Source: a virus (lineage: Duplodnaviria > Heunggongvirae > Uroviricota > Caudoviricetes). Taken from it: 32,996 bases of DNA. Location of the stretch: the IMG/VR virus record IMGVR_UViG_2778261300_000002, positions 1 through 32,996 of that record; one strand, 5' to 3'. Shown piece after piece: positions 2,152 to 31,444 of the stretch. Made by a program: the position numbers and the translations under genes. Every line of letters starts with the position of its first letter. The stretch's first letter is position 1. The notes beneath the pieces were generated by a model that had not been told where the DNA came from, did no database searches, and worked only from the letters and a program-made list of their open reading frames with translations.

Positions 2152-4404
2152 TCAGGCATCATCGTATGTTGCCCGATACAGTTCACCGTTCATCCCGTAA
2201 AAAACAGCCATCTTCAGCATCAGCGGGACAGTAAGGTTATTCCGCATCTCATCAGCGAAAAATAAATCAATCACACCTGTAAACTGTACTTCCGGTATAA
2301 TTTCGCAGTCAGCGCTGACCGTATACCGCCCCGGTGTGGCATTTGAGATCCAGTCAAGAAGCACTTCCTTCGACGAAAAGCTGAGAACGTCACCTTTTGT
2401 GAAGATATGCCCGAATCCCAGACTTCCTGCAACAGCGGCCCGCCCCTGCGTTCTGTCATAAATGCCTGACTGAAGCCCATAATTTCCGCCTGCTGCTGAG
2501 TTTCCACTATTTCCATTGATACCCAGAACGTCACACATCTCTTCGGCTGTGGATTGTGACAACAGCTGTTTCCCTTTTTCAGAAACAGGAGCCAGAGAAC
2601 ACTGCCCGTTACCGCTAAAACTGGGAAACCCATCTTCACCGGATGGAAGACTGCCTAACGCAGTCAGAACGGGATTTAAAGGCTGTTTTCCGGCCAGCAT
2701 CTTCATTATCGTTACGGAAAACGCCGGGTCATTACCCAGCGCCTCCGCCAGTTCGTTCAGCGTGTCCAGGGTTTCAGGAGATGAACCCACAAGAGCAGCA
2801 AGCAGTTTGCGGACAAACGCCGCATTCACTGTTTCCAGACCTGAAGCATCGTCCGGTGGTGTCGGTGTCATAGGGGTACCGGTGAAGACCGGACTATCCA
2901 GTGACGCTTTTGTCTTCACCTCATTCATGACGTTACTGACTGCAAGGGATGTGGCGGCCTCTGTCTGCGAAGTGCTGTCAGTACGGTTACTGAGCTTGAC
3001 AACTCCCTTTGTGGTCGTACTGGCATCTTCCAGGCCCACAGCAGATGCAATCTCCTCTGCCCGTTTTGCCGCATTTTCTGCGCGTGTTGCTGCAGACTCA
3101 GCAGAACTTTTGCTCTGCACTGCCGCTGTCGCACTGCCAGCTGCCTCTGTCGCCTTCGCGGATGCCGTCGTGGCACTGCCCTGCGCCTCTGACGCCAGCC
3201 TTGCCGCCTCATCTTTTGAAGCTGACGCCGATGATGCTGATGACGCCGCCGAACTGGCGGACGATACGGCTGCCGTTTTTGAGGATTCTGCGCTGGCTTC
3301 CGACGCTTTCGCGTTCGTCTCTGATGTCTTCGCTGCGGAAGCAGATCTCTCTGCTGCACTGGCCTGTTCAGCGGCTTCACCAGCCTTCGTTGTGGCTGCT
3401 GAAGCGGACGATGCAGCGCTTTCTGCCGATTTTCCGGCGGCGGTGGCACTGGCTGAGGCCTCCTCCGCTTTAACTGACGCCTCACGGGACGATGATGCAG
3501 CGGCAGTTTCTGAGCCTTCCGCTGCAGAAGCGCTCTGTGCCGCTGCCGTTTCAGAAGACCTTGCGTTCGTCTCGGACGTTTTTGCCGCCTTCGCGGAATT
3601 GCCTGCCGCCGTTGCCGAGGACGCTGCACCACTGGCGCTCAAGGCGGCGTTCGTTTCTGATGATTTTGCCGCCTCTTTTGAAGCCGACGCATCCCTGGCT
3701 GAGGTGGCAGCTTCTGACGCTTTCGTGGTCGCGGTGGATGCAGAAGTGGCGGCTGATTGTTGTGACGCTGCCGCATTCGTTTCTGACATTTTCGCCGCAC
3801 CGGCACTGGTGGCCGCCGCGCGTTTTGAGGACTCTGCAGCAGCGGCACTTTTTGATGCCTCAGTGGCCTTTGCTGATGCCGTTTCTGCGCCGGAAGACGC
3901 TTCCTGAGCCGACGTCGCAGCCTGTCCGGCGAACGTGCTGGCGGCGCGTGCTGAGTCCGCAGCATCAGTCGCATGGGTTGCCGCCTCACGGGCTGATGTA
4001 CCGGCATCGCTGGCTGATTTTTTCGCAGCTGCCGTATTCTGTGCCACTGAGGACGCGTTACGCGCCACCTCTTCCACCATCAGCTCAAAACGGCGCAGTG
4101 CCTCCGGACGGGCATCATCCTCCGTCATGGCACCGAGAAAATCATTCAGCGTACCGGGTTGAGAATCTTCATACACGGTGATGGTCCCGGCATGTGACGG
4201 CGGAAAACCGTCAACCAGCAGGATGACAGCGTACTGGCCATACTCAACATCCATACTGTAACGCCCGGCTTCATCCGGATTTTCTGAGGCCACCGTGTTC
4301 ACCACCACCGTGGTGCTGTTACGTTTTGCTTTCAGCTGAATGGTGCAGTTCTGTACCGGTTTACCTGCACCGTCTTTCAGCACGCCTGAAATCTTTACTG
4401 GCAT
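2152..4404 (-). CDS. stf: Side tail fibre protein Stf (lambda Stf-like N-terminus, divergent C-terminal domain)
   Basis: N-terminus MPVKISGVLKDGAGKPVQNCTIQLKA...GRYSMDVEYGQY...GFPPSHAGTITVYEDSQPGTLNDFL matches lambda Stf as remembered; long Ala/Ser/Thr-rich central region; lies directly after J. Confidence 0.9.
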   Translation of the reverse strand: MPVKISGVLKDGAGKPVQNCTIQLKAKRNSTTVVVNTVASENPDEAGRYSMDVEYGQYAVILLVDGFPPSHAGTITVYEDSQPGTLNDFLGAMTEDDARPEALRRFELMVEEVARNASSVAQNTAAAKKSASDAGTSAREAATHATDAADSARAASTFAGQAATSAQEASSGAETASAKATEASKSAAAAESSKRAAATSAGAAKMSETNAAASQQSAATSASTATTKASEAATSARDASASKEAAKSSETNAALSASGAASSATAAGNSAKAAKTSETNARSSETAAAQSASAAEGSETAAASSSREASVKAEEASASATAAGKSAESAASSASAATTKAGEAAEQASAAERSASAAKTSETNAKASEASAESSKTAAVSSASSAASSASSASASKDEAARLASEAQGSATTASAKATEAAGSATAAVQSKSSAESAATRAENAAKRAEEIASAVGLEDASTTTKGVVKLSNRTDSTSQTEAATSLAVSNVMNEVKTKASLDSPVFTGTPMTPTPPDDASGLETVNAAFVRKLLAALVGSSPETLDTLNELAEALGNDPAFSVTIMKMLAGKQPLNPVLTALGSLPSGEDGFPSFSGNGQCSLAPVSEKGKQLLSQSTAEEMCDVLGINGNSGNSAAGGNYGLQSGIYDRTQGRAAVAGSLGFGHIFTKGDVLSFSSKEVLLDWISNATPGRYTVSADCEIIPEVQFTGVIDLFFADEMRNNLTVPLMLKMAVFYGMNGELYRATYDDA

Positions 4405-4415
4405 ATTCGTTCCAC

Positions 4416-4443
4416 AAATAAAAAAGGTGCCATTTGTGGCACC
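4416..4443 (-). terminator. Rho-independent terminator between J and stf
   Basis: Perfect hairpin GGTGCCA-nnnn-TGGCACC followed by TTTTTTATTT on the minus strand. Confidence 0.5.
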
Positions 4444-4462
4444 CGGTCTGGTTTCTGAACAT

Positions 4463-5401
4463 TCAGCTGATACTGATACCTGCTGTGGATTTCTTCATCA
4501 CCACAACCAGTAAATCGCTGATGTACGTTGTCGGCGTCCAGTTGTTCGCACCGGTCGACGACACATTAAACGTCAGGGTGACATGACCCCGTCCTGCTGG
4601 CATGTCAATCACCGATGAGAACACCCGGCTGACATCCGTTGCCGGTTCATGGAAGATCTCAGCCCCGTTTTTCAGCACCTGCAGCTTGCAGGTGGAGTAC
4701 CAGTACGACTGCTGATTCGGGCTGTTGAAATTCTGGTGTTTCGTCCCGCGAAACACCACCGGGGGAATGATAATCTGCCGGTCGAAGCCCTGGTCATCAT
4801 AAACCGTGACAGTTATCTTGCCACTGGCATAACTGTTATTTCGGGGAAAGGCCTTCCCCACTGTTTTGACAATATCGCCTTCAATCTGGTTCGCGGACAG
4901 TTTTCCCAGAACCCGACAGTTCTCGTTAATCGTGACATTGTTGAGCGTCCCGGCGTTCGCATTCACACTGCCACTGATATCCGCATTTTTCGCCGTCAGC
5001 CGCCCGTCCGGTGTCAGGGAAAATACCGGCGGATTTCCACCGCTGGTAATGGTGGGGGCCGTCAGGCGTTTCAGGAACACGTCGTTCATGAATATCTGAT
5101 TGCCCTGCGCCACAAACATCGGCGTTTCATTCCCGTTTGCCGGGTCAATAAACGCGATACGGTTAGCGGCAACCAGAAACTGGCTCAGTTTGCCTTCCTC
5201 CGTGTCCTCCATGCTGAGGCCAATACCCGCGACATAATGTTTGCCGTCTTTGGTCTGCTCAATTTTGACAGCCCACATGGCATTCCACTTATCGTTGGCG
5301 TCCTTCCACTCTTTCGAAAACTCCTCCAGTCTGCTGGCGTTATCCTCCGTCAGCTCGACTTTTTCCAGCAGCTCCTTGCCGAGATGGGATTCGGTTATCC
5401 A
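4463..5401 (-). pseudogene. J: Host specificity protein J, C-terminal fragment only (about 300 aa)
   Basis: Translation ...[116 protein letters not shown]... matches the C-terminus of lambda J (full length 1132 aa); no start codon or N-terminal 800+ aa. Confidence 0.8.
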
Positions 5402-6165
5402 GCACAGCCTGCACGGACAGGCCGGTATATGCCGACACCTTCTGTGCAAACATCCGGCGGGTTGCATCCATCCGGGACTGCAGTGTTTCCCGGACATCAT
5501 CCGGTAGATGGCTGTAGGGGTTGCCATCCACCTTATGGCTGCCGCTGTAAATCAGCGTGATTTCCACGCCCTGTTTCTCCAGCGCAGCGCCGTAATTACT
5601 GTGAGCCATCATGACGCCGATGGAGCCTGTCCGGGCGGTCTGCGTGACCAGACGCCGGGAGGAGGCACTGGCAAGCAGCTGACCTGCGCTGCAGTTCATG
5701 TCATTGGCCAGCGCCCATACCGGCTTTATGTCACGCACACGGGCGATGATGTCAGCACAGTCAAATGCTCCCGCCACCATCCCGCCCGGTGTGTCCATAT
5801 CCAGCAGAATGCCGTCCACCATCGGATCGCTGGCAGCCTGTTGCAGACGGGCGATAATGCCGTTGTAACCGGTCATTCCCGAATACGGCTGCAGCGCCCG
5901 CGTCCGGCTGACCAGCGTACCGGACACCGGCAGCACGGCGATGCCGTTCATGACCTGATAACTGCGGGCCTGTCGTGGTCCGTCATCATCACCGGATAAC
6001 GCCAGCGCCGCGGGTGCCTCTCCGGCAGTCAGGCTGTCGCCGGATACTGCATCCGTCAGGCGGCTGATCCCAAGCTGGCCTGCAAGCGCACAAAAGAAAA
6101 CCCGCGCATAGGCGGGTTCAAGCATCAGCGGCTCATTAAAAGCCATGCTGGCAATATGCGGGAGA

Positions 6166-6185
<20 letters not shown>
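5340..6185 (-). pseudogene. C: Head protease/scaffold protein C (S49 peptidase family), truncated
   Basis: GTG start at 6185 overlapping the end of B as in lambda; VTAELRNLPHIASMAFNEPLMLEPAYARVFF...[17 protein letters not shown] matches lambda C, then diverges near 5400 and stops at 5340; lambda C is 439 aa. Confidence 0.8.
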
Positions 6186-9416
<3,231 letters not shown>

Positions 9417-9442
<26 letters not shown>

Positions 9443-11956: not shown

Positions 11957-12502
11957 CTACACCACCACGCGCTCTTTCATCCAGCCATACACGAACGATT
12001 CATTAGCCTCACGTTTTTCTGCCAGTTCAAGGTAGCGATCTCCCTGCGTACAGTTTAGCGCTGTCAGAATCACCAACTCACCATCCCTGCCACGTTTTGA
12101 CAAATAGGCGCGTAACGCATTAATGGTACGTGGGCCGATACAACCATCTGCATCAATGTCCGGATACAACTCTCCTTTCTGGTTAAATACATTAAGCCAG
12201 CGCTGAAGCATTCTGGATGCCACTGACGGCCCCATGTTTACGCCGGTATCACACAATTCAGCAGCGATCTCCGGAGACAGGCTCGCAACCTTGTGAAAAC
12301 GTGGCCCGTACCAGTAGTCCGCTTCAAGAATTTCGAGGGCCTGCCCACGCGTCAGGTCACGAATATCCCCCTGATAACCGTGTGCACGGGCAACTTTTCC
12401 AGTAATGCCCCATTTAGTCGGACCACCTTTATCATCAGGGTGGTTGACGTAGCCGCCCTCTTTGCCAAGAACAGCATCAAAAATTTCATCTTTCGACTTC
12501 AT
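11957..12502 (-). CDS. Endolysin, GH108-type muramidase with C-terminal peptidoglycan-binding domain
   Basis: Start at internal Met (MKSKDEIFDAVLGKEGGYVNHPDDKGGPTKWGIT..., the GH108 N-terminal signature) rather than the ORF-track start at 12550; directly downstream of two small membrane-protein genes. Confidence 0.8.
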   Translation of the reverse strand: MKSKDEIFDAVLGKEGGYVNHPDDKGGPTKWGITGKVARAHGYQGDIRDLTRGQALEILEADYWYGPRFHKVASLSPEIAAELCDTGVNMGPSVASRMLQRWLNVFNQKGELYPDIDADGCIGPRTINALRAYLSKRGRDGELVILTALNCTQGDRYLELAEKREANESFVYGWMKERVVV

Positions 12503-12503
12503 C

Positions 12504-12785
12504 TCAGCGCCTTCGTAATACAAAGATTTTTGAAACGTTCCCACGAGCACGAACCACCAGCACGCAGAACAGCAGGTTAAAAAACACTTCCAGCCAGCCC
12601 GTTGCTAACGGGCGACCACACAGATAGCTGAGGGGCGCAAAGGCATACAGCAGCATCAGCAGCCAGGCCAGCCATGACATCAGCGGTTTATGTCTGGAAT
12701 CACGGCGACGATAAAAAAAGAGCGTCAGCACGATAACCGTGCATAACGCCACATTCAGTAATCCGGGAAGGTTACTTAACATTGC
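12504..12785 (-). CDS. Lysis-cassette membrane protein (putative holin/antiholin partner)
   Basis: 93 aa from the ATG at 12785 with GGAGGAGG Shine-Dalgarno; three hydrophobic segments; start overlaps the holin stop and its stop abuts the endolysin start. Confidence 0.55.
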   Translation of the reverse strand, partial: AMLSNLPGLLNVALCTVIVLTLFFYRRRDSRHKPLMSWLAWLLMLLYAFAPLSYLCGRPLATGWLEVFFNLLFCVLVVRARGNVSKIFVLRRR

Positions 12786-13164
12786 CGCCTCCTCCACCCC
12801 GCAGGCGGGAGAACAGGCCGGACACCAGCGATGCAATATCCTGCTGGTGGATGAACGAGAGAATCTTCACCGACACCACTGACACCAGCACTGCACACAG
12901 TGCGTCGACAGGCGCACCGTCAAACCCTGTACGCTTTACCAGCCAGGATGCCAGAACCTCTGCGTCCAGCACGCCGATAATGAACGACACCAGAAAATGC
13001 GCCGCCACACGCCAGGCTGAAAGCGCCTGCGGCATCGTTGCCACAAATAACGCCCCGGCGAACGCACCAAACACAATCCCGAAATCCGTTCCGGTAAACA
13101 GCCCGAATACCGTCGCCCCGCCGAGCGCCGCAGCCGTACCGGAACCGGATAAGGGTTCAGACAT
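12772..13164 (-). CDS. Putative holin
   Basis: 131 aa from the ATG at 13164 with GGGAGG Shine-Dalgarno; Gly/Ala-rich hydrophobic segments; first gene of the lysis cassette, preceded by a terminator. Confidence 0.6.
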   Translation of the reverse strand: MSEPLSGSGTAAALGGATVFGLFTGTDFGIVFGAFAGALFVATMPQALSAWRVAAHFLVSFIIGVLDAEVLASWLVKRTGFDGAPVDALCAVLVSVVSVKILSFIHQQDIASLVSGLFSRLRGGGGGNVK

Positions 13165-13180
13165 GCTTTTTCCTCCCACA

Positions 13181-13205
13181 AATAAAAAAGGGCCTCCAGC
13201 GGCCC
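13181..13205 (-). terminator. Rho-independent terminator directly upstream of the holin gene (tR'-like candidate)
   Basis: Minus-strand hairpin GGGCC-GCTGGA-GGCCC followed by TTTTTTATTT, 17 nt before the holin Shine-Dalgarno. Confidence 0.55.
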
Positions 13206-13327
13206 GTAAAAACACCCTGTCAAAGGCACCCGCAGATGCCTTTTGTGTGGTGTTATCTGATGTGATGTGCGCCGGGCGCGGCGCGGATATGAAAAAGGCC
13301 CGCCGGAGCGAGCCATACAAAACTGAA

Positions 13328-13354
13328 TAAAAAAAACCGCCCGGTAGAGGCGGT
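13328..13354 (-). terminator. Rho-independent terminator
   Basis: Minus-strand hairpin ACCGCC-TCTACCG-GGCGGT followed by TTTTTTTT. Confidence 0.5.
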
Positions 13355-13716
13355 TGGTCTATGCATGAGAATAAATCATTTTTATTGTAATAAAAATCAA
13401 GGCGTCGGGTGCCTCCCGAAGTATTCCACTTTACATGGATACTGTGGTTTCCCGCTAAATTGAATATATAAACCACCCTCGCACTGAGGAACGCCTCAAT
13501 TCATAGTTTTCGACACAGAGATTGCGCATCACCGGTTTTCCGGTGCTCCATGCTGCTTGCTTTCGGAGGCAAGCGCCATTTCTTATTCATAAAAAATACA
13601 GCACTGAATCTGCAACCGACCTTCGTAACAGAATGAGGGACGATAATAAAACTACCAAGGTCTGTTCCTCACGAAAAACGCCAGTGCTGTAAAAATTCAC
13701 AAAGCCAGAGTAATGA

Positions 13717-13792
13717 TGGAGCGAAGAACAGGAATCGAACCTGCATCATCAACTCAGAAGATTGATGGTAATAGCCATTATACGATCTCCGC
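13717..13792 (-). tRNA. tRNA-Arg(UCU)-like gene with atypical anticodon-stem/variable-loop geometry
   Basis: 76 nt: acceptor GCGGAGA/TCTTCGC, T-arm GCAGG-TTCGATT-CCTGT, anticodon loop CTTCTGA, encoded CCA. Anticodon stem folds as 6 bp with a 3-nt variable loop. The ORF-track peptide MMERRTGIEPA is this tRNA read as protein. Confidence 0.55.
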
Positions 13793-14145
13793 ATGCCGTA
13801 CTGGCTCACGGAATCACGTGAATTACCGGGAGCCAGCACTGGTCTTTCAGGTGACCTGTAACACCCCTGTTAACATAAAAGATAAACACCTTCCAGACCA
13901 CCGCAAATACTAACGGCAGTTTTTCAGACATCAAAATATATTTGGTATTCATTTTTAAATATATGTATACATCTGTATCAGAAATATATAACTTATATCA
14001 TTACTGAATTAAAAATATTGCGTTATTTCTCTGTCCGTCTGATTAAAACGTTCCTCCTCCAGTTCGATGCCAGTCGCGCGACGCCCTGCACTCAATGAAA
14101 AAGGCCCGCCGCAGCGTGCCTGTTTTCAATGAGTGCAAAGTTCAA

Positions 14146-14889
14146 TTATTCTTGAGTAACACTTAAACTCATCTCATTGAATGCAGCCATCCTGTAACCT
14201 GCCGGTGTAACACCAAAATAACTCCTGAATACGCTGATAAAATAAGATGTAAAATTATAGCCGCACTGAGCAGCGATTCTGTTGATGGCGCAACGAGATT
14301 GACTCAACAGCATTGCTGCCATTCTCATTCTCTCTGTAAGCAACAACTCACTGAAACAGGTGCCTTCTTCTTTCAGTCTTTTTTTTAACAAACTTTCACT
14401 GATACATAACCGCGAAGACACATCTCTCAGAGTCCAGTTTGCTGCAATGTCCGTACGAAACAATGCACTAAGCCTGTCACTAATATTGCTAATACACGCG
14501 GTCAGAAACGACGAAAACATTTTCTCTGATGAGAAAAACGCCAGACACGAAAAGGAAAGCATTTCCGCTAAATTGTCCGTATGAATCTTTTCCTCACAAA
14601 GATAATCAATCAGGATGCCCATCAATTCTGCCTTGGGAAAACTCACGCAAAGATATCGTGGTATTTGCCGGACTAAAACTACATCCTGTTTTTCGTCTCC
14701 ACACAACAGGTAACGGCTAATTGTCGATTCACTGAGACTTATTCGCCGAAAACATTCCGAAAAGGGCAATAACGATCCAGCTCCCCCCCTGACAAGAAGT
14801 GCACTACCACTTTCAAGAGAGAGCTCTTTTCCTTCAAAGAGCACAACAAACGGGGAATGAACAAAAACAACAGAACAGGCTTCATTCAT
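14146..14889 (-). CDS. AraC-family transcriptional regulator, AppY/EnvY/PatE-like
   Basis: Start at internal Met (MNEACSVVFV...) rather than the ORF-track start at 15042; C-terminal AraC HTH region (...ISESLLKKRLKEEGTCFSELLLTERMRMAAMLLSQSRCAINRIAAQCGYNFTSYFISVFRSYFGVTPAGY) resembles the prophage-encoded AppY family. Confidence 0.8.
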   Translation of the reverse strand: MNEACSVVFVHSPFVVLFEGKELSLESGSALLVRGGAGSLLPFSECFRRISLSESTISRYLLCGDEKQDVVLVRQIPRYLCVSFPKAELMGILIDYLCEEKIHTDNLAEMLSFSCLAFFSSEKMFSSFLTACISNISDRLSALFRTDIAANWTLRDVSSRLCISESLLKKRLKEEGTCFSELLLTERMRMAAMLLSQSRCAINRIAAQCGYNFTSYFISVFRSYFGVTPAGYRMAAFNEMSLSVTQE

Positions 14890-15118
14890 ATCAATTGCCC
14901 TGACATTACTGGTCACAAGATAAGTATATATCGATTTACAAAAATACAAGCCGAAAGACCAGTATTCGCAACCACCAGCACGTTTTATGTTCTCTGCCGT
15001 TTTTCGGACATAAAAAACCCGCTCAATGGCGGGTTGTATCAAAGTTCATGCGCTTGGTTCGCCTCGCGATACAGCTTTGCGAAGCATAGCAAAATTGAAG
15101 CAGTTTATACGTAAGAAA

Positions 15119-15661
15119 TCAAGCCATTTTCTCAGCAAATGATTCACGCATGGGAATATATAGGGCATACTCAGCAACGGCCAACCAATTAGCAATTCGC
15201 TTTTCGCATGTGCTAAAACACCACTCTGGGTGTGCATCATTTAGCAATTCAGCCATTTTGCGTTTGGTCATCCCCCGCCCCTCATACCGTTGACGAAGGA
15301 CGCTAATCAATCCTGGATGCTCTGCCAGCACCTCACTTATGACCCGATCAATACATAACGCCTCTGCATCAGTACAATGCACCAGCCAGCTTTTTTGCTT
15401 GCCGTTGATCATATCCCGCAAAAAATCCTCAAGTTCAGGTTTGTCCAGACCTGCTTTTTTCATCCTCCGGAGCGCCTCGTTAATTGCCGTTTTTGTCAGC
15501 TTTTTAGAGGTCAGGAACTGGTTGAACATATTTCCCGTCTTACCGCCGCCAATATACGACCAGCGCCCCCACATACGTAGTTTTCCCTGAATCCAGACAC
15601 TTTCCAGCGTGGTGAGACGAAGGTGTTCCCCGCTTTTGCCTGTATTTGTTGGGTAAATCAT
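15119..15661 (-). CDS. Late-gene antiterminator Q-like protein
   Basis: 180 aa from the ATG at 15661 (GGAGAAAGGAAGG Shine-Dalgarno; start overlaps the ybcO-like stop as ATGA); last nin-region gene before the late region; contains WGRW motif. Family assignment by position plus weak recall. Confidence 0.6.
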   Translation of the reverse strand: MIYPTNTGKSGEHLRLTTLESVWIQGKLRMWGRWSYIGGGKTGNMFNQFLTSKKLTKTAINEALRRMKKAGLDKPELEDFLRDMINGKQKSWLVHCTDAEALCIDRVISEVLAEHPGLISVLRQRYEGRGMTKRKMAELLNDAHPEWCFSTCEKRIANWLAVAEYALYIPMRESFAEKMA

Positions 15662-15948
15662 AAATAACCTTCCTTTCTCCAGATTTCTTGTGTGCGAAAA
15701 ACACCTTCTGCATGCATCAGGCGTAATTCTTCTTTGGTGTAATCGCTGGTTTTTACCCGCCCGTCGATTAAATCGTGGCACGAGCTACAGGCAATCGCTG
15801 CCTGCATATCGTGTGGCTTTATCGCTGTTCCGCACGTTCCCGCCAGTCGGTAATGCGCCAGTACAGACGTTTCGGGATTGTGATTGCAGTAGCCAGGAAT
15901 TCTGACCTGGCACATCTGGCCCCGCGCCGCTTTACGTAAATCCACCAT
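15658..15948 (-). CDS. DUF1364 protein (YbcO-like putative nuclease)
   Basis: 96 aa, MVDLRKAARGQMCQVRIPGYCNHNPETSVLAHYRLAGTCGTAIKPHDMQAAIACSSCHDLIDGR... resembles DLP12 YbcO, Cys-rich. Confidence 0.8.
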   Translation of the reverse strand: MVDLRKAARGQMCQVRIPGYCNHNPETSVLAHYRLAGTCGTAIKPHDMQAAIACSSCHDLIDGRVKTSDYTKEELRLMHAEGVFRTQEIWRKEGYL

Positions 15949-16547
15949 TACGCAAACTCCAGTAACTGCGCGGCCACATTTTCGACCTGTTCCGGAGAGG
16001 AAAATTTACGGAACAGGATCCAGTTCCACAGCACATTCAGTACAGATTTATAAACCTGCTGAAACTCGGTTTCGTCCATATTCGCAAACGCGATGGATTT
16101 CGCCCTGCGCCCACGGCTACCGTCCGGATAAATATGCTCGGTGTAAAATCCGGCCTGAATGGTTACCCACTCGCGGAAAGCCTCAAATGACTTTAGCAAT
16201 GCCGTATCCCGGGTTCTGCGTATCGCAACGGTATTCAGATATTGCTCTGCGGCTTCGCTCAGAGCTGGCGTATGTTCCCGGCCTACTGACTCGCACAGGT
16301 AATCAACGAATCCTGATACCAGTTCTCGTTCTCGAGGCGTGATCGCCCCACCGATAGGAGTCCAGTAATCGAATCCCAGTTGCAGGAGTTTGAAAAAACG
16401 CTTGTGGAATGCGTAGTTACGCACACGCTTAAAGTCTGCGTGTATCAACTCACCTATTTTGATTTGATGCAAAAAATCGCAACTCTCCGGCGTCGCCGGG
16501 AGAAGTAAACCAGAAGAAGTTTGTTTGACCAGTTGTATATGCGCCAT
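15948..16547 (-). CDS. DUF1367 protein (YbcN-like)
   Basis: 199 aa, MAHIQLVKQTSSGLLLPATPESCDFL...ERELVSGFVDYL...KSIAFANMDETEFQQVYKSVLNVLWNWI... resembles DLP12 YbcN. Confidence 0.8.
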   Translation of the reverse strand: MAHIQLVKQTSSGLLLPATPESCDFLHQIKIGELIHADFKRVRNYAFHKRFFKLLQLGFDYWTPIGGAITPRERELVSGFVDYLCESVGREHTPALSEAAEQYLNTVAIRRTRDTALLKSFEAFREWVTIQAGFYTEHIYPDGSRGRRAKSIAFANMDETEFQQVYKSVLNVLWNWILFRKFSSPEQVENVAAQLLEFA

Positions 16548-17139: not shown

Positions 17140-17265
17140 CTAGGCTAAAAGATCTATGTTCCCTTGCTTGATGTGCAACTCGCAAGGCGAACCGCGAACC
17201 ATCCAGACCAAAACCAGAATGGTGCAACAAACCACCACCAGACAGAACACATAGTTCCTTCGCAT
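17140..17265 (-). CDS. Hok/Gef-family type I toxin homolog (41 aa, ends at an in-frame TAG; possibly truncated or a pseudogene)
   Basis: Translation MRRNYVFCLVVVCCTILVLVWMVRGSPCELHIKQGNIDLLA has the Hok layout (single TM, then CE-x-[HR]-x-[KR] motif). In-frame TAG is immediately followed by codons for LAYE, the conserved Hok C-terminal motif. Below the 60-aa ORF-track cutoff. Confidence 0.55.
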   Translation of the reverse strand: MRRNYVFCLVVVCCTILVLVWMVRGSPCELHIKQGNIDLLA

Positions 17266-18490: not shown

Positions 18491-18518
18491 AAAAAGAGGC
18501 CTAACGGCCTCTTTATTT
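18491..18518. terminator. Bidirectional rho-independent terminator between convergent genes
   Basis: AAAAA-GAGGCC-TAAC-GGCCTC-TTTATTT; serves the plus-strand membrane protein gene and the minus-strand S8 protease gene. Confidence 0.7.
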
Positions 18519-20772
18519 AGCGTATCTGGATTCTTTCCTCATTACTTACTATTATATCATCACTTTCCCAACCTAATAAATCAAGTTCAGAAACGGCTTC
18601 AGAATAAATATCTTTATCCGCAGATAACGAACGTAAAGTAATCAGCAATACAGCCCGCTGTGGAAACTCAAGTTTATCTTGCTCTGCTCTACGTTGCACA
18701 TCTATTTTTAGTCTCCACGTATTCCCTTGTGTGCCTTGAGGGTACTTTTTCCTATACACTTTTATTGGTGACCATTTAAAACCATTCTCTATGAGATACT
18801 TCTCATATAATTCACTTTTATCCTTTACTTGAGGCACCTTGCTTATGTGTTTTCTTTTTTTTGTTTTATCAAAGTCGTATGTTCCAAAAGAAACATCTAC
18901 ATTAGATCGGCAATATTCTGAAGGGTAGTTCGGATCTAATGGCGGAGAGTAAACAAGAGTCATTAATATCTCTCCTGTAAATTTTCCCTCATCATTTTTT
19001 AAAGAATTAGGGATTACAAATGGATAGCGACCAAACTCTTCACCTTCAAGAGTATTAACTTCAAAAAGAAATGTTATTTCATTTTTCTTACAAGATAACA
19101 TATCTGAAATATTATCTTTTGGAATACCAAAACCATGATAATTTATTTCTTTTGGATCAATTTGATCCGTTCGCTCTAACATCGCTGAATGAATGATTAA
19201 TGCTTTCACTCTTTCCGGTGATGGTGAAATATTGCTATTTAATTGCAGCTCATGCCATGTTGCAGCTGCAATACTTGAGATTAGTGGAGTGGAGAGGCTT
19301 GTACCAACAGATTCCGATAAGTGACCATTATCTCCAATAGCAAATATTCCTAAATCAGAAAAATCAAGATTTGCCCTGCAGTTCCCACCAAAATGAGTAA
19401 CTTCAGGTTTTGGAATACAGGAAGGCCCGGGGCCTCTTCTGGAAAAGGATGATGGTTGGTTTGCTTTTACAATGGAGTCGGCACAATCTACATGTGCAAC
19501 AGATCCCACCGTCAAAGCTCGCACAGAATCCCCCGGAGCGGAAATACGATCACAATCTGATAGCTCCTGAGGCGGCCAAGTGCGTTGCGGTAAAGATTCG
19601 TAATTACCAGATGCAACAACAAAAAGGCATCCATGTTCATCATGCAAATAACTCAACAAATGACCAAGTTCGGAAAAATTATCACTATGGCAGGCTTCTT
19701 TCTGTCCGAGAGATAGATTCCATATTTTTACTTCAGGGAAATCCTCAACAGCTGTTGTAATTATATTCGCAAGTTCTGGTAGTGATAGTTCTGTATCCGC
19801 AGGAAACGCTGCAATATCAACCACCTCCGCATGTGTATTAGGAAACCCTTCGTAGTTTCTATTTAACCCTTTACTATCAATGATTAAACTTGCCACCATA
19901 TTGCCGTGAGTATAATCGGCCTTCCTTCCATTAAGAAAGCTCCTTCTTCCCCATACCCATGGAGAGATATCCCTATTGTTTGGGTCAATACCACTATCTA
20001 TTATCCCTACTAATGGATAATGTGCATCTACATCAGGAATCGGTAATAATGCCTTTTTTTCGGCTGCTGTTTTTGATATTATTGCTTCACTATTATCCAG
20101 CTTAAAAGTGGGCATTGGCTGTAACTTCCTAACACCAATGAAATTTGATAATTCATAAATGTTGTTATTTTCAGGAACTTCAAAATAAAAAATATCATTT
20201 CCAATCGTGTGTTTATTTGGCTCAGGAATATTTAACTCAGCCATCATTAATTTCAATGACTCTTCAAGGGATTTATTTTTCTTCCTATTCCTGTGATCAA
20301 ATAATTTCAAGATATATGTTTTGGCCCCCTCATCTGCTATTCTGTCACAAATGAAGGGTTCGATTTTATCAATAACAGCAATATGGAGCGTACCATTTTT
20401 GGTTTTCGTGCTATTTTGTATTTTAGATTCAAGCCTAGAAAGGCCCTCTTCGGTTACACTTACTAATAATTCACCCAAATTACAACTACCAATTACGGGA
20501 CAGGTTTTGTCTCCAAGCAAACTAGTAGGACGATGTGATTTCGCTAAAGCTTTATCATGCAGAGTAACTTTTGCTACCGCAGGCACTCCCGGCCACTTTC
20601 GGAATGAGTCTCTAAAGTGTTCGGACACACATCTAACTTCATTTTTGAGCCTAGATAATAACTCTTTTGTTACTGGGCGAATGGGTTCCTTTTCAGTAAA
20701 ACCGTAGGTTTTGTCATTAAAATCTTTTGCAAATGTCTTAATGATTTTTATGGGCCTTTCAACTTTGCTCAT
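18517..20772 (-). CDS. S8 subtilase-family serine protease (IetS-like)
   Basis: 751 aa; catalytic triad motifs VGIIDSGID (Asp), HGNMVAS (His), GTSLSTP (Ser); about 240-aa N-terminal and 200-aa C-terminal extensions; AT-rich. Confidence 0.8.
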   Translation of the reverse strand: MSKVERPIKIIKTFAKDFNDKTYGFTEKEPIRPVTKELLSRLKNEVRCVSEHFRDSFRKWPGVPAVAKVTLHDKALAKSHRPTSLLGDKTCPVIGSCNLGELLVSVTEEGLSRLESKIQNSTKTKNGTLHIAVIDKIEPFICDRIADEGAKTYILKLFDHRNRKKNKSLEESLKLMMAELNIPEPNKHTIGNDIFYFEVPENNNIYELSNFIGVRKLQPMPTFKLDNSEAIISKTAAEKKALLPIPDVDAHYPLVGIIDSGIDPNNRDISPWVWGRRSFLNGRKADYTHGNMVASLIIDSKGLNRNYEGFPNTHAEVVDIAAFPADTELSLPELANIITTAVEDFPEVKIWNLSLGQKEACHSDNFSELGHLLSYLHDEHGCLFVVASGNYESLPQRTWPPQELSDCDRISAPGDSVRALTVGSVAHVDCADSIVKANQPSSFSRRGPGPSCIPKPEVTHFGGNCRANLDFSDLGIFAIGDNGHLSESVGTSLSTPLISSIAAATWHELQLNSNISPSPERVKALIIHSAMLERTDQIDPKEINYHGFGIPKDNISDMLSCKKNEITFLFEVNTLEGEEFGRYPFVIPNSLKNDEGKFTGEILMTLVYSPPLDPNYPSEYCRSNVDVSFGTYDFDKTKKRKHISKVPQVKDKSELYEKYLIENGFKWSPIKVYRKKYPQGTQGNTWRLKIDVQRRAEQDKLEFPQRAVLLITLRSLSADKDIYSEAVSELDLLGWESDDIIVSNEERIQIR

Positions 20773-20809
20773 TCATTTTTCCTTTACAATTTTCCAGTTC
20801 TATTTTTAA

Positions 20810-21979
20810 CTAACCCACCTTTGTAGTATCTTGCCTTCTTGAGGATTTACTCTTAGACGTTAACCTAGATACCTTATTTGCTGAAATTGAAAGTAAACTA
20901 GCAATTTTTCTTACTGTAAATACTCTCTCATCACAATTTCTAATTAATTTTGCTAATTTTTCTATTATTTGTTCTGGTTGATCAAACTTCTCTCCTTTAG
21001 ATTCCCAAATAGACATCATAAGAAAAGTTGTATCAAATTTACCATTATTAAATAAAATAGAATGGCGAAGCGCACGCTCGCATATTTGTTCAATAAACGC
21101 ACATGACAAGTCTTTTGAGAGAACAGCGGAGTCATATGCAACATCTAATGTTGGAAAATGCTGATTCAATAATCTTTCATATAGACGTTCTCTCACTTTT
21201 AAATCAGGTAAACCAATTTCGAGTCTGTATGAAAATCTACGCCAAACCGCATTATCTAGTAAATTCTCGTGATTGCTGGCAGATATAAGTACAGTATGTT
21301 CAGGAAGATCATCAATGTTTTGTAACAATGCAACAACAACTCTTTTTAATTCACCCAATTCATGTTGATCATCTCTGGCTTTTGCCAAAGCATCAAGTTC
21401 GTCCAGAAATAGAACGCAAGGTTGATTGCTTGCATACTCAAAAAGAGTGCGTATATTTTTAGCTGTTGAACCTAAATATGACGATACCAACGCATCACAC
21501 CGCGCAGTGAAAAGAGGTAATCTCAACTCAGATGCAATATGCTTAGCTGCAAGAGTTTTGCCACAACCTGGAGGACCAAAAAGTATCATTGAGGATGCAG
21601 CTTTTAATCCATATTTCTTCAGTTCATCTCTTCGTATTACTGATGTAATAAATTCATTAATTTTTTCATTAATCGAGTTATTCAAAATAGGTGGAGCTAC
21701 GTTGATCTCAGGCTCTGTTTTATCTGCCAGATGAAATTTTGTTTCATTATCAGTAGGAACTGAATATGCCTTTGTGGAGAGGCTATTTTGAGTAAAGTTT
21801 GCTTTCTGAAGCGAGAATGTAGTTTCCTGCTTCAAGAAGCTTCGTATTGTTTTCGCGAGTTCGCGCTCACCTTCCGCATCCATCTCTCTTGCAACTTTTG
21901 CTGCAATTCTCTGGAAGGTTATTTTATCGCCTATGACCCCTGACTTTATGAGGTCTACCAATAACTCGCCGTTGTTCAT
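20810..21979 (-). CDS. AAA+ ATPase (IetA-like)
   Basis: Walker A GPPGCGKT, Walker B VLFLDELD, arginine-finger region NAVWRRF. Start set at the ATG giving MNNGELLVDL...; the ORF-track start at 22030 is a TTG. Immediately upstream of the S8 protease gene. Confidence 0.8.
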   Translation of the reverse strand: MNNGELLVDLIKSGVIGDKITFQRIAAKVAREMDAEGERELAKTIRSFLKQETTFSLQKANFTQNSLSTKAYSVPTDNETKFHLADKTEPEINVAPPILNNSINEKINEFITSVIRRDELKKYGLKAASSMILFGPPGCGKTLAAKHIASELRLPLFTARCDALVSSYLGSTAKNIRTLFEYASNQPCVLFLDELDALAKARDDQHELGELKRVVVALLQNIDDLPEHTVLISASNHENLLDNAVWRRFSYRLEIGLPDLKVRERLYERLLNQHFPTLDVAYDSAVLSKDLSCAFIEQICERALRHSILFNNGKFDTTFLMMSIWESKGEKFDQPEQIIEKLAKLIRNCDERVFTVRKIASLLSISANKVSRLTSKSKSSRRQDTTKVG

Positions 21980-31255: not shown

Positions 31256-31444
31256 ATGTATAAAATTACCGCTACAATTGAAAAGGAAGGTGGCACTCCT
31301 ACTAACTGGACAAGATATTCAAAATCTAAACTAACGAAATCAGAATGCGAAAAAATGCTCTCAGGTAAAAAAGAAGCAGGCGTTTCCAGAGAGCAGAAAG
31401 TAAAACTGATAAATTTTAATTGCGAGAAACTTCAGTCCTCGTGA
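31256..31444 (+). CDS. ydaC: YdaC-like small protein
   Basis: 62 aa from the ATG at 31256 (GGAGG Shine-Dalgarno): MYKITATIEKEGGTPTNWTRYSKSKLTKSECEKMLSGKKEAGVSREQKVKLINFNCEKLQSS. Confidence 0.65.
   Translation: MYKITATIEKEGGTPTNWTRYSKSKLTKSECEKMLSGKKEAGVSREQKVKLINFNCEKLQSS

Follow-up and report, generated by a model that had tools for sequence, protein, structure and literature searches.

What is an AraC-type transcription factor doing between the late antiterminator gene and the lysis genes of a prophage, and is it there for the phage or for the host? The question is raised by a stretch of 32,996 nucleotides from IMG/VR record IMGVR_UViG_2778261300_000002 (hereafter the window, in whose coordinates positions are given), where a reading made from the letters alone (the sequence-only reading) had placed an AraC-family regulator gene and a tRNA between a Q-like gene and the holin; the open reading frame (ORF), the Pfam, ARAGORN and Rfam matches and the neighbouring genes all bear this placement out. 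Our analysis indicates that a defective lambdoid prophage probably carries here, within the leader of its late operon, an accessory gene cassette complete in itself (a ‘moron’), and that this cassette encodes an intact, selectively maintained AraC/XylS factor. Positions 13600–15200 are 100% identical to the chromosome of Escherichia coli ZYB62, a bovine isolate; the RefSeq annotation of that record has a lambdoid prophage at the Rac site, flanked by ompN and uspF on one side and by recE, recT and ralR on the other, with its late genes on the − strand. In the same annotation the terminase gpA gene abuts a tail-fibre gene (window about 4130–9440), the head genes and most tail genes being missing, and because these two genes are by annotation directly joined, the prophage is taken to be defective.

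The regulator is encoded in a − strand ORF that spans 15042 to 14146. We place its start at the ATG at 14889, as in RefSeq, a choice that is also backed by the family N-terminus M-x-x-x-C-S-V; a 298-residue ORF beginning with the TTG at 15042 was rejected as the gene, since it crosses the tR′-like terminator described below and the alignments with all homologues begin at that ATG. The C-terminal domain, of about 100 residues, contains two helix-turn-helix (HTH) motifs and scores above the Pfam gathering cut-offs for both HTH_18 (E = 1.1e-13, 51.7 bits against a cut-off of 33.6, profile positions 2–78 of 80) and HTH_AraC (E = 3.5e-13, 49.7 bits against 26.6), which places the protein within the AraC/XylS family. 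It also matches the DNA-binding domain of GadX (3mkl; E = 1.2e-22) and PHROG 1450 (3.6e-57), whilst a PADLOC scan of the regulator returned no match and the names under which it has been deposited are generic only (‘AraC family / helix-turn-helix’). An AlphaFold2 model, built on an alignment of 9 sequences, gives predicted local distance difference test (pLDDT) values of 79–96 for the DNA-binding domain; the N-terminal domain is unreliable in this model (pLDDT 36–62, lowest at residues 60–134).

The sequence-only reading had allowed that disruptive mutations in the HTH might mark the gene as a pseudogene; the HTH is complete and the ORF is full-length. Compared with a variant that is 88% identical in DNA, the gene has a synonymous divergence (dS) of 0.23 and a non-synonymous divergence (dN) of 0.066, the ratio dN/dS being 0.28 overall and 0.21 in the DNA-binding half. 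Full-length, uninterrupted copies are found at 41 of 46 IMG/VR loci, and an identical protein occurs on 570 contigs. The substitution pattern indicates that purifying selection acts on the regulator and that the gene is functional rather than a pseudogene.

The limits of the cassette are defined by breaks in homology. Alignments with other E. coli genomes and with unrelated prophages end at 14095 and, for many, at 15038, so that terminator, upstream region, gene and terminator move as one unit; the tR′-like terminator forms the 5′ edge, and the core of the hairpin that follows the gene forms the 3′ edge. The cassette is present in 65 of 5426 complete E. coli genomes, in each over at least 98% of its length and always on the chromosome. 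Two variants are seen: 42 copies, at least 96% identical, are mostly from cattle, food and Shiga toxin-producing E. coli (STEC) strains, and 23 copies, about 88% identical, are mostly from porcine enterotoxigenic E. coli (ETEC) and O139:H1 strains.

Its context was examined in six annotated genomes and at the 46 IMG/VR prophage loci. A Q-type gene lies upstream in the same orientation at 42 of the 46 loci, and immediately adjacent at 38; two other loci are Q-flanked fragments at contig ends that retain only the 5′ part of the gene, and at the last two of the 46 no Q gene was recognised upstream. The Q genes behind which the cassette is found again are of at least four unrelated types, namely DUF1133 (three sub-types), a 273-residue type (two sub-types), the QuuD type and a further Q type (W13). 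Downstream, the holin_8/holin_3_7 pair is present wherever the contig is long enough. At some loci a TerB/DUF3927 gene or a DNA methyltransferase gene is intercalated between the AraC gene and the holins, and at some an OmpC porin or DUF6731 gene between Q and the AraC gene.

A moron, in the concept of Juhala and Hendrix, is a gene additional to the conserved phage genes between which it has been inserted, and it brings a promoter and a terminator of its own. The cassette resembles this in its presence/absence polymorphism at a fixed site between conserved phage genes, in its own flanking terminator and in its lower G+C content (42% for the regulator gene and cassette against 48–60% for the neighbours); it differs in that its autonomous promoter is a candidate only.

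The sequence-only reading had noted a long imperfect hairpin directly 3′ of the gene, with arms at 14088–14101 and 14123–14136; these are complementary at 13 of 14 positions, and the structure is the intrinsic terminator of the regulator gene. The RNA of 14060–14160 (− strand) folds as a single long hairpin of −40.3 kcal/mol (z = −4.69; none of 200 shuffled sequences was as stable), comprising a GC-rich core stem-loop (14102–14121; GGCACGC-UGCG-GCGGGCC followed by UUUUU), a U-run (14096–14101), an A/U extension and an outer 11-bp stem (14130–14140 paired with 14084–14094). The core alone is worth −15.7 kcal/mol (z = −3.7); it is kept in the three other copies of at least 96% identity that were aligned and is partly altered in the 88% variant, whilst the outer 3′ arm is found only at the junction of this strain with the tRNA segment.

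A second intrinsic terminator, resembling tR′, separates the Q-like gene from the AraC gene. Its stem (AACCCGC-loop-GCGGGTT followed by U6; −11.2 kcal/mol, z = −2.6) is retained with a different loop in EDL933 O-island 57, and related sequence follows other Q types too. From the regulator gene to the holin four canonical terminators follow one another, and a count over 13100–15800 as a whole gives 11 terminator-like sites, where shuffled sequences lead one to expect 2.5, a multiplicity such as would be expected of a Q-antiterminated operon.

Ahead of the tR′-like terminator, conservation points to a candidate late promoter, pR′, whose −35 element overlaps the stop codon of the Q-like gene. Among DUF1133 modules encoding proteins 75–96% identical to that of the window, no variation is seen in the TTG of the −35 element, in the entire −10 element or in the block downstream, and the conserved initial transcribed region extends to about 15050. 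The nearly invariant stretch 15050–15122, made up of the two promoter elements with their spacer and about 45 nt more, is thus a candidate for the late promoter and Q-utilisation region of the DUF1133 Q type. The only promoter match returned by the scan tool lies inside the Q gene (15184–15155) and was rejected, being unconserved in other DUF1133 modules. For the regulator itself, the two cassette variants differ at about 7% of positions in the approximately 80 nt next to the ATG, as against about one third in the distal 60 nt, and the conserved block contains a TTGTAT-15-TATACT arrangement that may serve as a weak, sub-consensus promoter. The coordinates of these features, together with those of the surrounding genes, are collected in Table 1.

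Table 1. Features of the regulator cassette and of the surrounding late region (window coordinates).
Feature	Position	Strand	Basis
Mobile AraC cassette (terminator, upstream region, gene, terminator), 944 bp	14095–15038	−	Homology break-points
AraC/XylS-family regulator gene, 247 aa, intact	14146–14889	−	RefSeq WP_032316927.1; Pfam
Candidate own promoter of the regulator	14923–14949	−	TTGTAT 14949–14944, 15-nt spacer, TATACT 14928–14923; conserved AT-rich block
Extended hairpin, intrinsic terminator of the regulator gene	14084–14140	−	Folding, conservation
tR′-like intrinsic terminator between the Q-like and AraC genes	15010–15035 (stem 15016–15035 plus U-run)	−	Folding, conservation
Candidate late promoter pR′	15094–15122	−	Conservation; −35 TTGATT 15122–15117, 17-nt spacer, −10 TTCAAT 15099–15094
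Three additional intrinsic terminators preceding the holin gene	13335–13355, 13297–13314, 13190–13205	−	Terminator scan, folding
tRNA-bearing insert, 780 bp (806 bp with one repeat copy)	13315–14094	−	Flanked by 26-nt direct repeat of terminator
tRNA, anticodon UCU (TCT), glyT-type body	13717–13792	−	ARAGORN; Rfam RF00005, 47.8 bits
DUF1367 gene	15948–16547	−	
YbcO gene	15658–15948	−	
Q-like late antiterminator gene (DUF1133, 180 aa)	15119–15661	−	PF06576, PHROG 753
Phage_holin_8 gene	12772–13164	−	Pfam; RefSeq annotation
Phage_holin_3_7 gene	12504–12782	−	Pfam; RefSeq annotation
GH108 endolysin gene	11957–12505	−	Pfam; RefSeq annotation

Along the − strand the order is DUF1367, YbcO, DUF1133, the AraC-type gene, the tRNA, two holins and the GH108 endolysin. 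The AraC gene is therefore the first after the Q-like gene and runs in the same direction as the lysis genes, downstream of Q, the candidate pR′ and tR′. The range that the sequence-only reading gave for the feature ended at 15118, the base before the stop codon of the Q-like gene (15119–15121). The DUF1133 protein matches PF06576 from end to end (E = 1.5e-106) and PHROG 753, ‘anti-termination protein Q-like’ (5e-79), and has a weak, sub-threshold match to Phage_antitermQ (PF06530; 4.6e-5).

To which regulators is the protein related? BLASTP aligns it with the PatE candidate of strain Sakai (ECs_0287) at 40% identity over 234 residues, with YdeO and with the probable PsrB of EDL933 O-island 57 at 37% each, and with AppY at 30%; tblastn gives 36% for GadW. 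Its end-to-end alignments and its M-x-x-x-C-S-V N-terminus place it in the YdeO/GadW/AppY/PatE/Psr clade. The sequence-only reading had likened both ends of the protein to AppY, EnvY and PatE, which holds over the full length for PatE and AppY but not for EnvY: EnvY shares only the 127-residue DNA-binding half (residues 107–232, 40% identity), and no BLAST similarity was found between its N-terminal domain and the regulator, leaving an EnvY-like N-terminus unsupported. AdiY and GadX likewise match in the C-terminal DNA-binding domain only. Relative to the full-length relatives, identity is 21–32% in the N-terminal domain and 42–49% in the DNA-binding domain, and it is highest in the HTH motifs, which are 54–71% (HTH1) and 54–67% (HTH2) identical to those of PatE, the probable PsrB, YdeO and AppY. 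The first recognition helix carries a SESLLKK motif in the regulator, PatE, the probable PsrB and YdeO, and SESLIKK in AppY.

Within this clade the protein stands apart. The best NCBIfam model is that of YdeO (NF007407), aligned over the whole length, but its score of 148.2 bits is far short of the equivalog cut-off of 348; 37% identity to the probable PsrB is too distant for the Psr family proper, and full-length identity to AppY or EnvY is below the level of an orthologue. The sequence-only reading had also proposed a phylogeny against the named regulators. In a neighbour-joining tree (no bootstrap) the regulator forms its own clade beside the phage-borne PatE, Psr and lambda-2G7a groups, inside the YdeO/GadW/AppY set, whilst EnvY, AdiY, GadX and YbcM fall outside, EnvY clustering with AdiY and GadX. 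A HMMER search of 1.84 billion cluster representatives recovered its own cluster (83% identity) and then none above 43%, with 8 clusters reaching E ≤ 1e-30; a word-based search shows a gap in identity from 75% to 42% among its relatives, and no close relative was found among GTDB species representatives. Taken together, these comparisons identify the regulator as a distinct, uncharacterised lineage of the YdeO/GadW/AppY/PatE/Psr clade.

The closest parallel in gene arrangement is the O-island 57 locus of EDL933. Its AraC gene (L019:30274–30987, 237 aa) is very probably psrB, which is z2104 in O-island 57 and is associated with Pch regulators (PMC10877973); PsrA and PsrB are 90% identical to each other (PMC10877973). 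This protein belongs to the same clade and has the same M-x-x-x-C-S-V N-terminus, its DUF1133 gene is 82% identical to that of the window, the leader and terminator are shared at 80% DNA identity down to window position 14947, and a 47-nt stretch is 89% identical to the linker terminator of the window. The order in O-island 57 is DUF1133, leader/terminator, a short ORF, the AraC gene, tRNA-Ile/Met and tRNA-Arg(tct), and the linker terminator, after which come TerB, DUF3927, an esterase, holin and lysozyme genes and a PerC/Pch regulator. The two loci differ in that the proteins are 37% identical and hence of different lineages, that a 65-residue hypothetical ORF stands between Q and psrB in EDL933, and that the adjacent tRNA-Arg is argU-like there and glyT-like in the window. 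Psr-type genes are found in 726 of the 5426 genomes (median two copies), as against 65 for the cassette of the window.

We also sought psrA in O-island 50/Sp6, where reviews place z1789, and found no AraC homologue in the fetched stretches of Sakai or of re-sequenced EDL933; for this reason the comparison with Psr rests on the O-island 57 gene. What O-island 50/Sp6 does contain, after the Q gene, is a 78-nt leader remnant like window 14947–15022 (L017 13263–13338; L018 21863–21938), followed by a TerB pseudogene.

The sequence-only reading had also drawn a parallel with Shiga toxin (Stx) phages, which carry tRNAs and toxin genes in this slot. It is upheld by an Stx2k phage in which an AraC copy 92% identical to the probable PsrB lies just upstream of tRNAs and stx2; in the lambda-like phage 2G7a, another member of the clade is located between Q and holin. 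The remaining relatives are placed differently. PatE (z0321/ECs_0287, O-island 8/prophage Sp1), an activator of gadE and hdeA (PMC10877973), is the best-matching characterised protein, likewise 247 residues long and prophage-borne, but its gene is at the far prophage end, beside tail-fibre genes and then a transposase, outside the Q-to-lysis slot. The gene for AppY, which activates gadE (PMC10057817), is similarly at an end of the DLP12 prophage beyond the tail-fibre genes. YdeO and GadW of E. coli K-12 differ in being chromosomal rather than phage-borne and in having other inputs, YdeO being part of the EvgAS–YdeO–GadE circuit (cited in PMC10057817). A literature search yielded no explicit description of an ‘AraC between Q and holin’. 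Characterised regulators nonetheless exemplify this architecture of the slot already; the novelty lies in the occupying lineage and in the clean modular boundaries of the cassette.

The structure of the locus suggests how the regulator would be expressed. In the lysogen, polymerase starting at the candidate late promoter would halt at the tR′-like terminator, yielding a predicted leader RNA of about 75–80 nt. Because this strong terminator separates the candidate late promoter from the regulator gene, expression in the lysogen would need an own promoter, and the regulator would then be made only from the weak AT-rich promoter within the conserved 80 nt upstream of the ATG, which is probably conditional or silenced by H-NS, as in the relatives. 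Upon induction, polymerase modified by Q would pass tR′ and then the four terminators downstream without stopping, so that regulator, tRNA and lysis genes would be co-expressed; such Q-driven expression fits the architecture. The protein itself would act in trans on host promoters. PatE and PsrB bind a fragment of the hdeA promoter that extends from −132 to −45. PatE, PsrA/B and AppY raise gadE and/or hdeA, and PsrA thereby represses type III secretion (PMC10877973, PMC10057817). Because the recognition helices of the regulator are close to those of PatE, PsrB, YdeO and AppY, all activators of gadE or hdeA, the likeliest targets are the GAD acid-fitness regulon and its downstream genes; we offer this target set tentatively, as a best guess.

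Several points weigh against this account. The prophage is defective, and the Q cascade may no longer fire in it. The assignment of DUF1133 as a Q-like antiterminator is by homology only, as it is in a survey of Stx phages, where the role was proposed by HHpred only (PMC8136144). The promoter scan found no consensus promoter upstream of the regulator gene. Identity to every characterised relative is at most 40%, and because the N-terminal domain is so divergent (21–32%), the signal input, the partners and the set of targets may differ from theirs. Finally, the labels ‘PsrB’ (L019:30274–30987) and ‘PatE’ (ECs_0287) rest on location and on each gene being the sole AraC-type gene in the O-island stretch examined; the deposited names, being generic, do not confirm them.

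Might the regulator serve the phage rather than the host, by controlling phage or prophage promoters during lytic growth (lysis timing, accessory genes, other prophages) or by reprogramming the dying cell? The gene follows Q whatever the Q type, directly so in most contexts examined, a terminator insulates it from late-promoter transcription in the lysogen, and the scan found no consensus promoter of its own, all of which would suit such a role. We nevertheless consider it unlikely, as a prophage that lacks head and tail genes still has the gene intact and under purifying selection, the conserved 80 nt proximal to the ATG suggest an own promoter or 5′ untranslated region, and the relatives PatE, PsrA/B and AppY bind host promoters and have phenotypes that are seen without induction of the lysogen (PMC10877973, PMC10057817).

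We regard with similar reserve the proposal that the protein is a regulator of virulence or colonisation, in the manner of PsrA or of Rns, CsvR and ToxT, controlling adhesins, secretion systems or toxins of the STEC, porcine ETEC and oedema-disease strains that carry it. The carriers fit: strains with the variant of at least 96% identity are bovine and STEC, and those with the 88% variant are porcine ETEC and O139:H1. Matches to Rns (5e-18), CsvR (1e-17) and ToxT (2e-14) extend beyond the DNA-binding domain, and Psr regulators repress type III secretion (PMC10877973). Against this, the proteins that it resembles over the full length are YdeO, GadW, PatE and Psr, and do not include Rns or ToxT, and the control of type III secretion by Psr itself runs via GadE (PMC10877973). 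A shade less probable again is that the cassette is chiefly a device of the lytic cycle and not a gene of lysogenic conversion, in which a Q-antiterminated regulator reprogrammes the host for the phage, for example through the GadE stress regulon, here paired with a glyT-bodied tRNA(UCU) that would decode AGA, possibly with non-standard charging. That the gene is a decaying passenger without current function is very improbable: the prophage is defective and truncated or frameshifted copies exist (P0006–P0011; L061, L062; split annotation in strains C3 and C7), but the full-length ORF with its complete DNA-binding domain, the low dN/dS and the predominance of intact and identical copies all speak against decay. 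A maintained host-acting factor carried on a moron-like cassette remains our preferred interpretation.

The tRNA lies outside the range given by the sequence-only reading, yet within the slot that it described. The name given there, tRNA-Arg-like, is right in respect of the anticodon, TCT, only: in its D-arm, variable region, T-loop and U73 discriminator the tRNA agrees with K-12 glyT and not with argU, whereas argU and the EDL933 phage tRNA-Arg(tct) have G73 and a different body. ArgRS, the arginyl-tRNA synthetase, recognises A20 and A or G at the discriminator position 73 as identity elements; the tRNA of the window has neither these ArgRS identity elements nor homology to argU. Because the body is that of glyT, the charging identity of this tRNA is uncertain. 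ARAGORN draws it with a 6-bp anticodon stem, all its phage homologues are annotated as tRNA-Gly, and the exact sequence occurs in 2 of the 5426 genomes. A glyT-bodied tRNA(UCU) recalls the classical AGA missense suppressors derived from glyT.

The insert that bears this tRNA is bounded by a 26-nt direct repeat of the terminator (D1; 14095–14120 and 13289–13314, 92% identical). In strain 52F4 there is one repeat copy and no insert, the AraC terminator running into the holin leader, and the tRNA segment is thus an indel flanked by a duplicated terminator. The 88% cassette variant has a homologous segment with a tRNA-Gly(tcc) instead. The same linker, about 50 nt long, is met again where accessory genes join in other prophages, EDL933 O-island 57 among them, and the recurrence of this linker terminator suggests a recombination hot spot. 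Nine of the 17 arginine codons in the regulator gene are AGA or AGG, as against 0–2 such codons in each neighbouring gene, and this AGA/AGG-rich gene adjoins a tRNA with a UCU anticodon; because many cassettes are without a tRNA, any link between the two is optional.

Other accessory genes were observed in the window on the − strand. An anti-phage defence pair, IetA (AAA ATPase, 2e-131) and IetS (S8 protease, 1e-270), occupies 18517–21979 in the early region of the prophage, and a Hok/Gef family toxin gene (17140–17265, RefSeq annotation) is located between the nin-like region and this pair. The antitoxin small RNA RalA (Rfam RF02694, 218 bits) lies at 31262–31440, adjoining the ralR toxin gene, for which the RefSeq annotation records an internal stop and pseudogene status; RalA and ralR are typical content of a Rac prophage.

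Prophage-borne AraC regulators such as AppY, PatE and PsrA/B connect with the circuits that govern acid resistance and virulence in E. coli, and the cassette adds a further, uncharacterised lineage to them, carried mostly by cattle- and pig-associated strains that include STEC and porcine ETEC. It also bears on how such regulators move: the travelling unit extends from terminator to terminator and recombines at conserved sequences of the late leader and of the linker terminator, behind Q genes of many kinds. The glyT-derived tRNA with an arginine anticodon poses a small and separate puzzle of tRNA identity. If the regulator does control acid survival or colonisation, the cassette would be one more strain-specific determinant of gut passage and of persistence in livestock.

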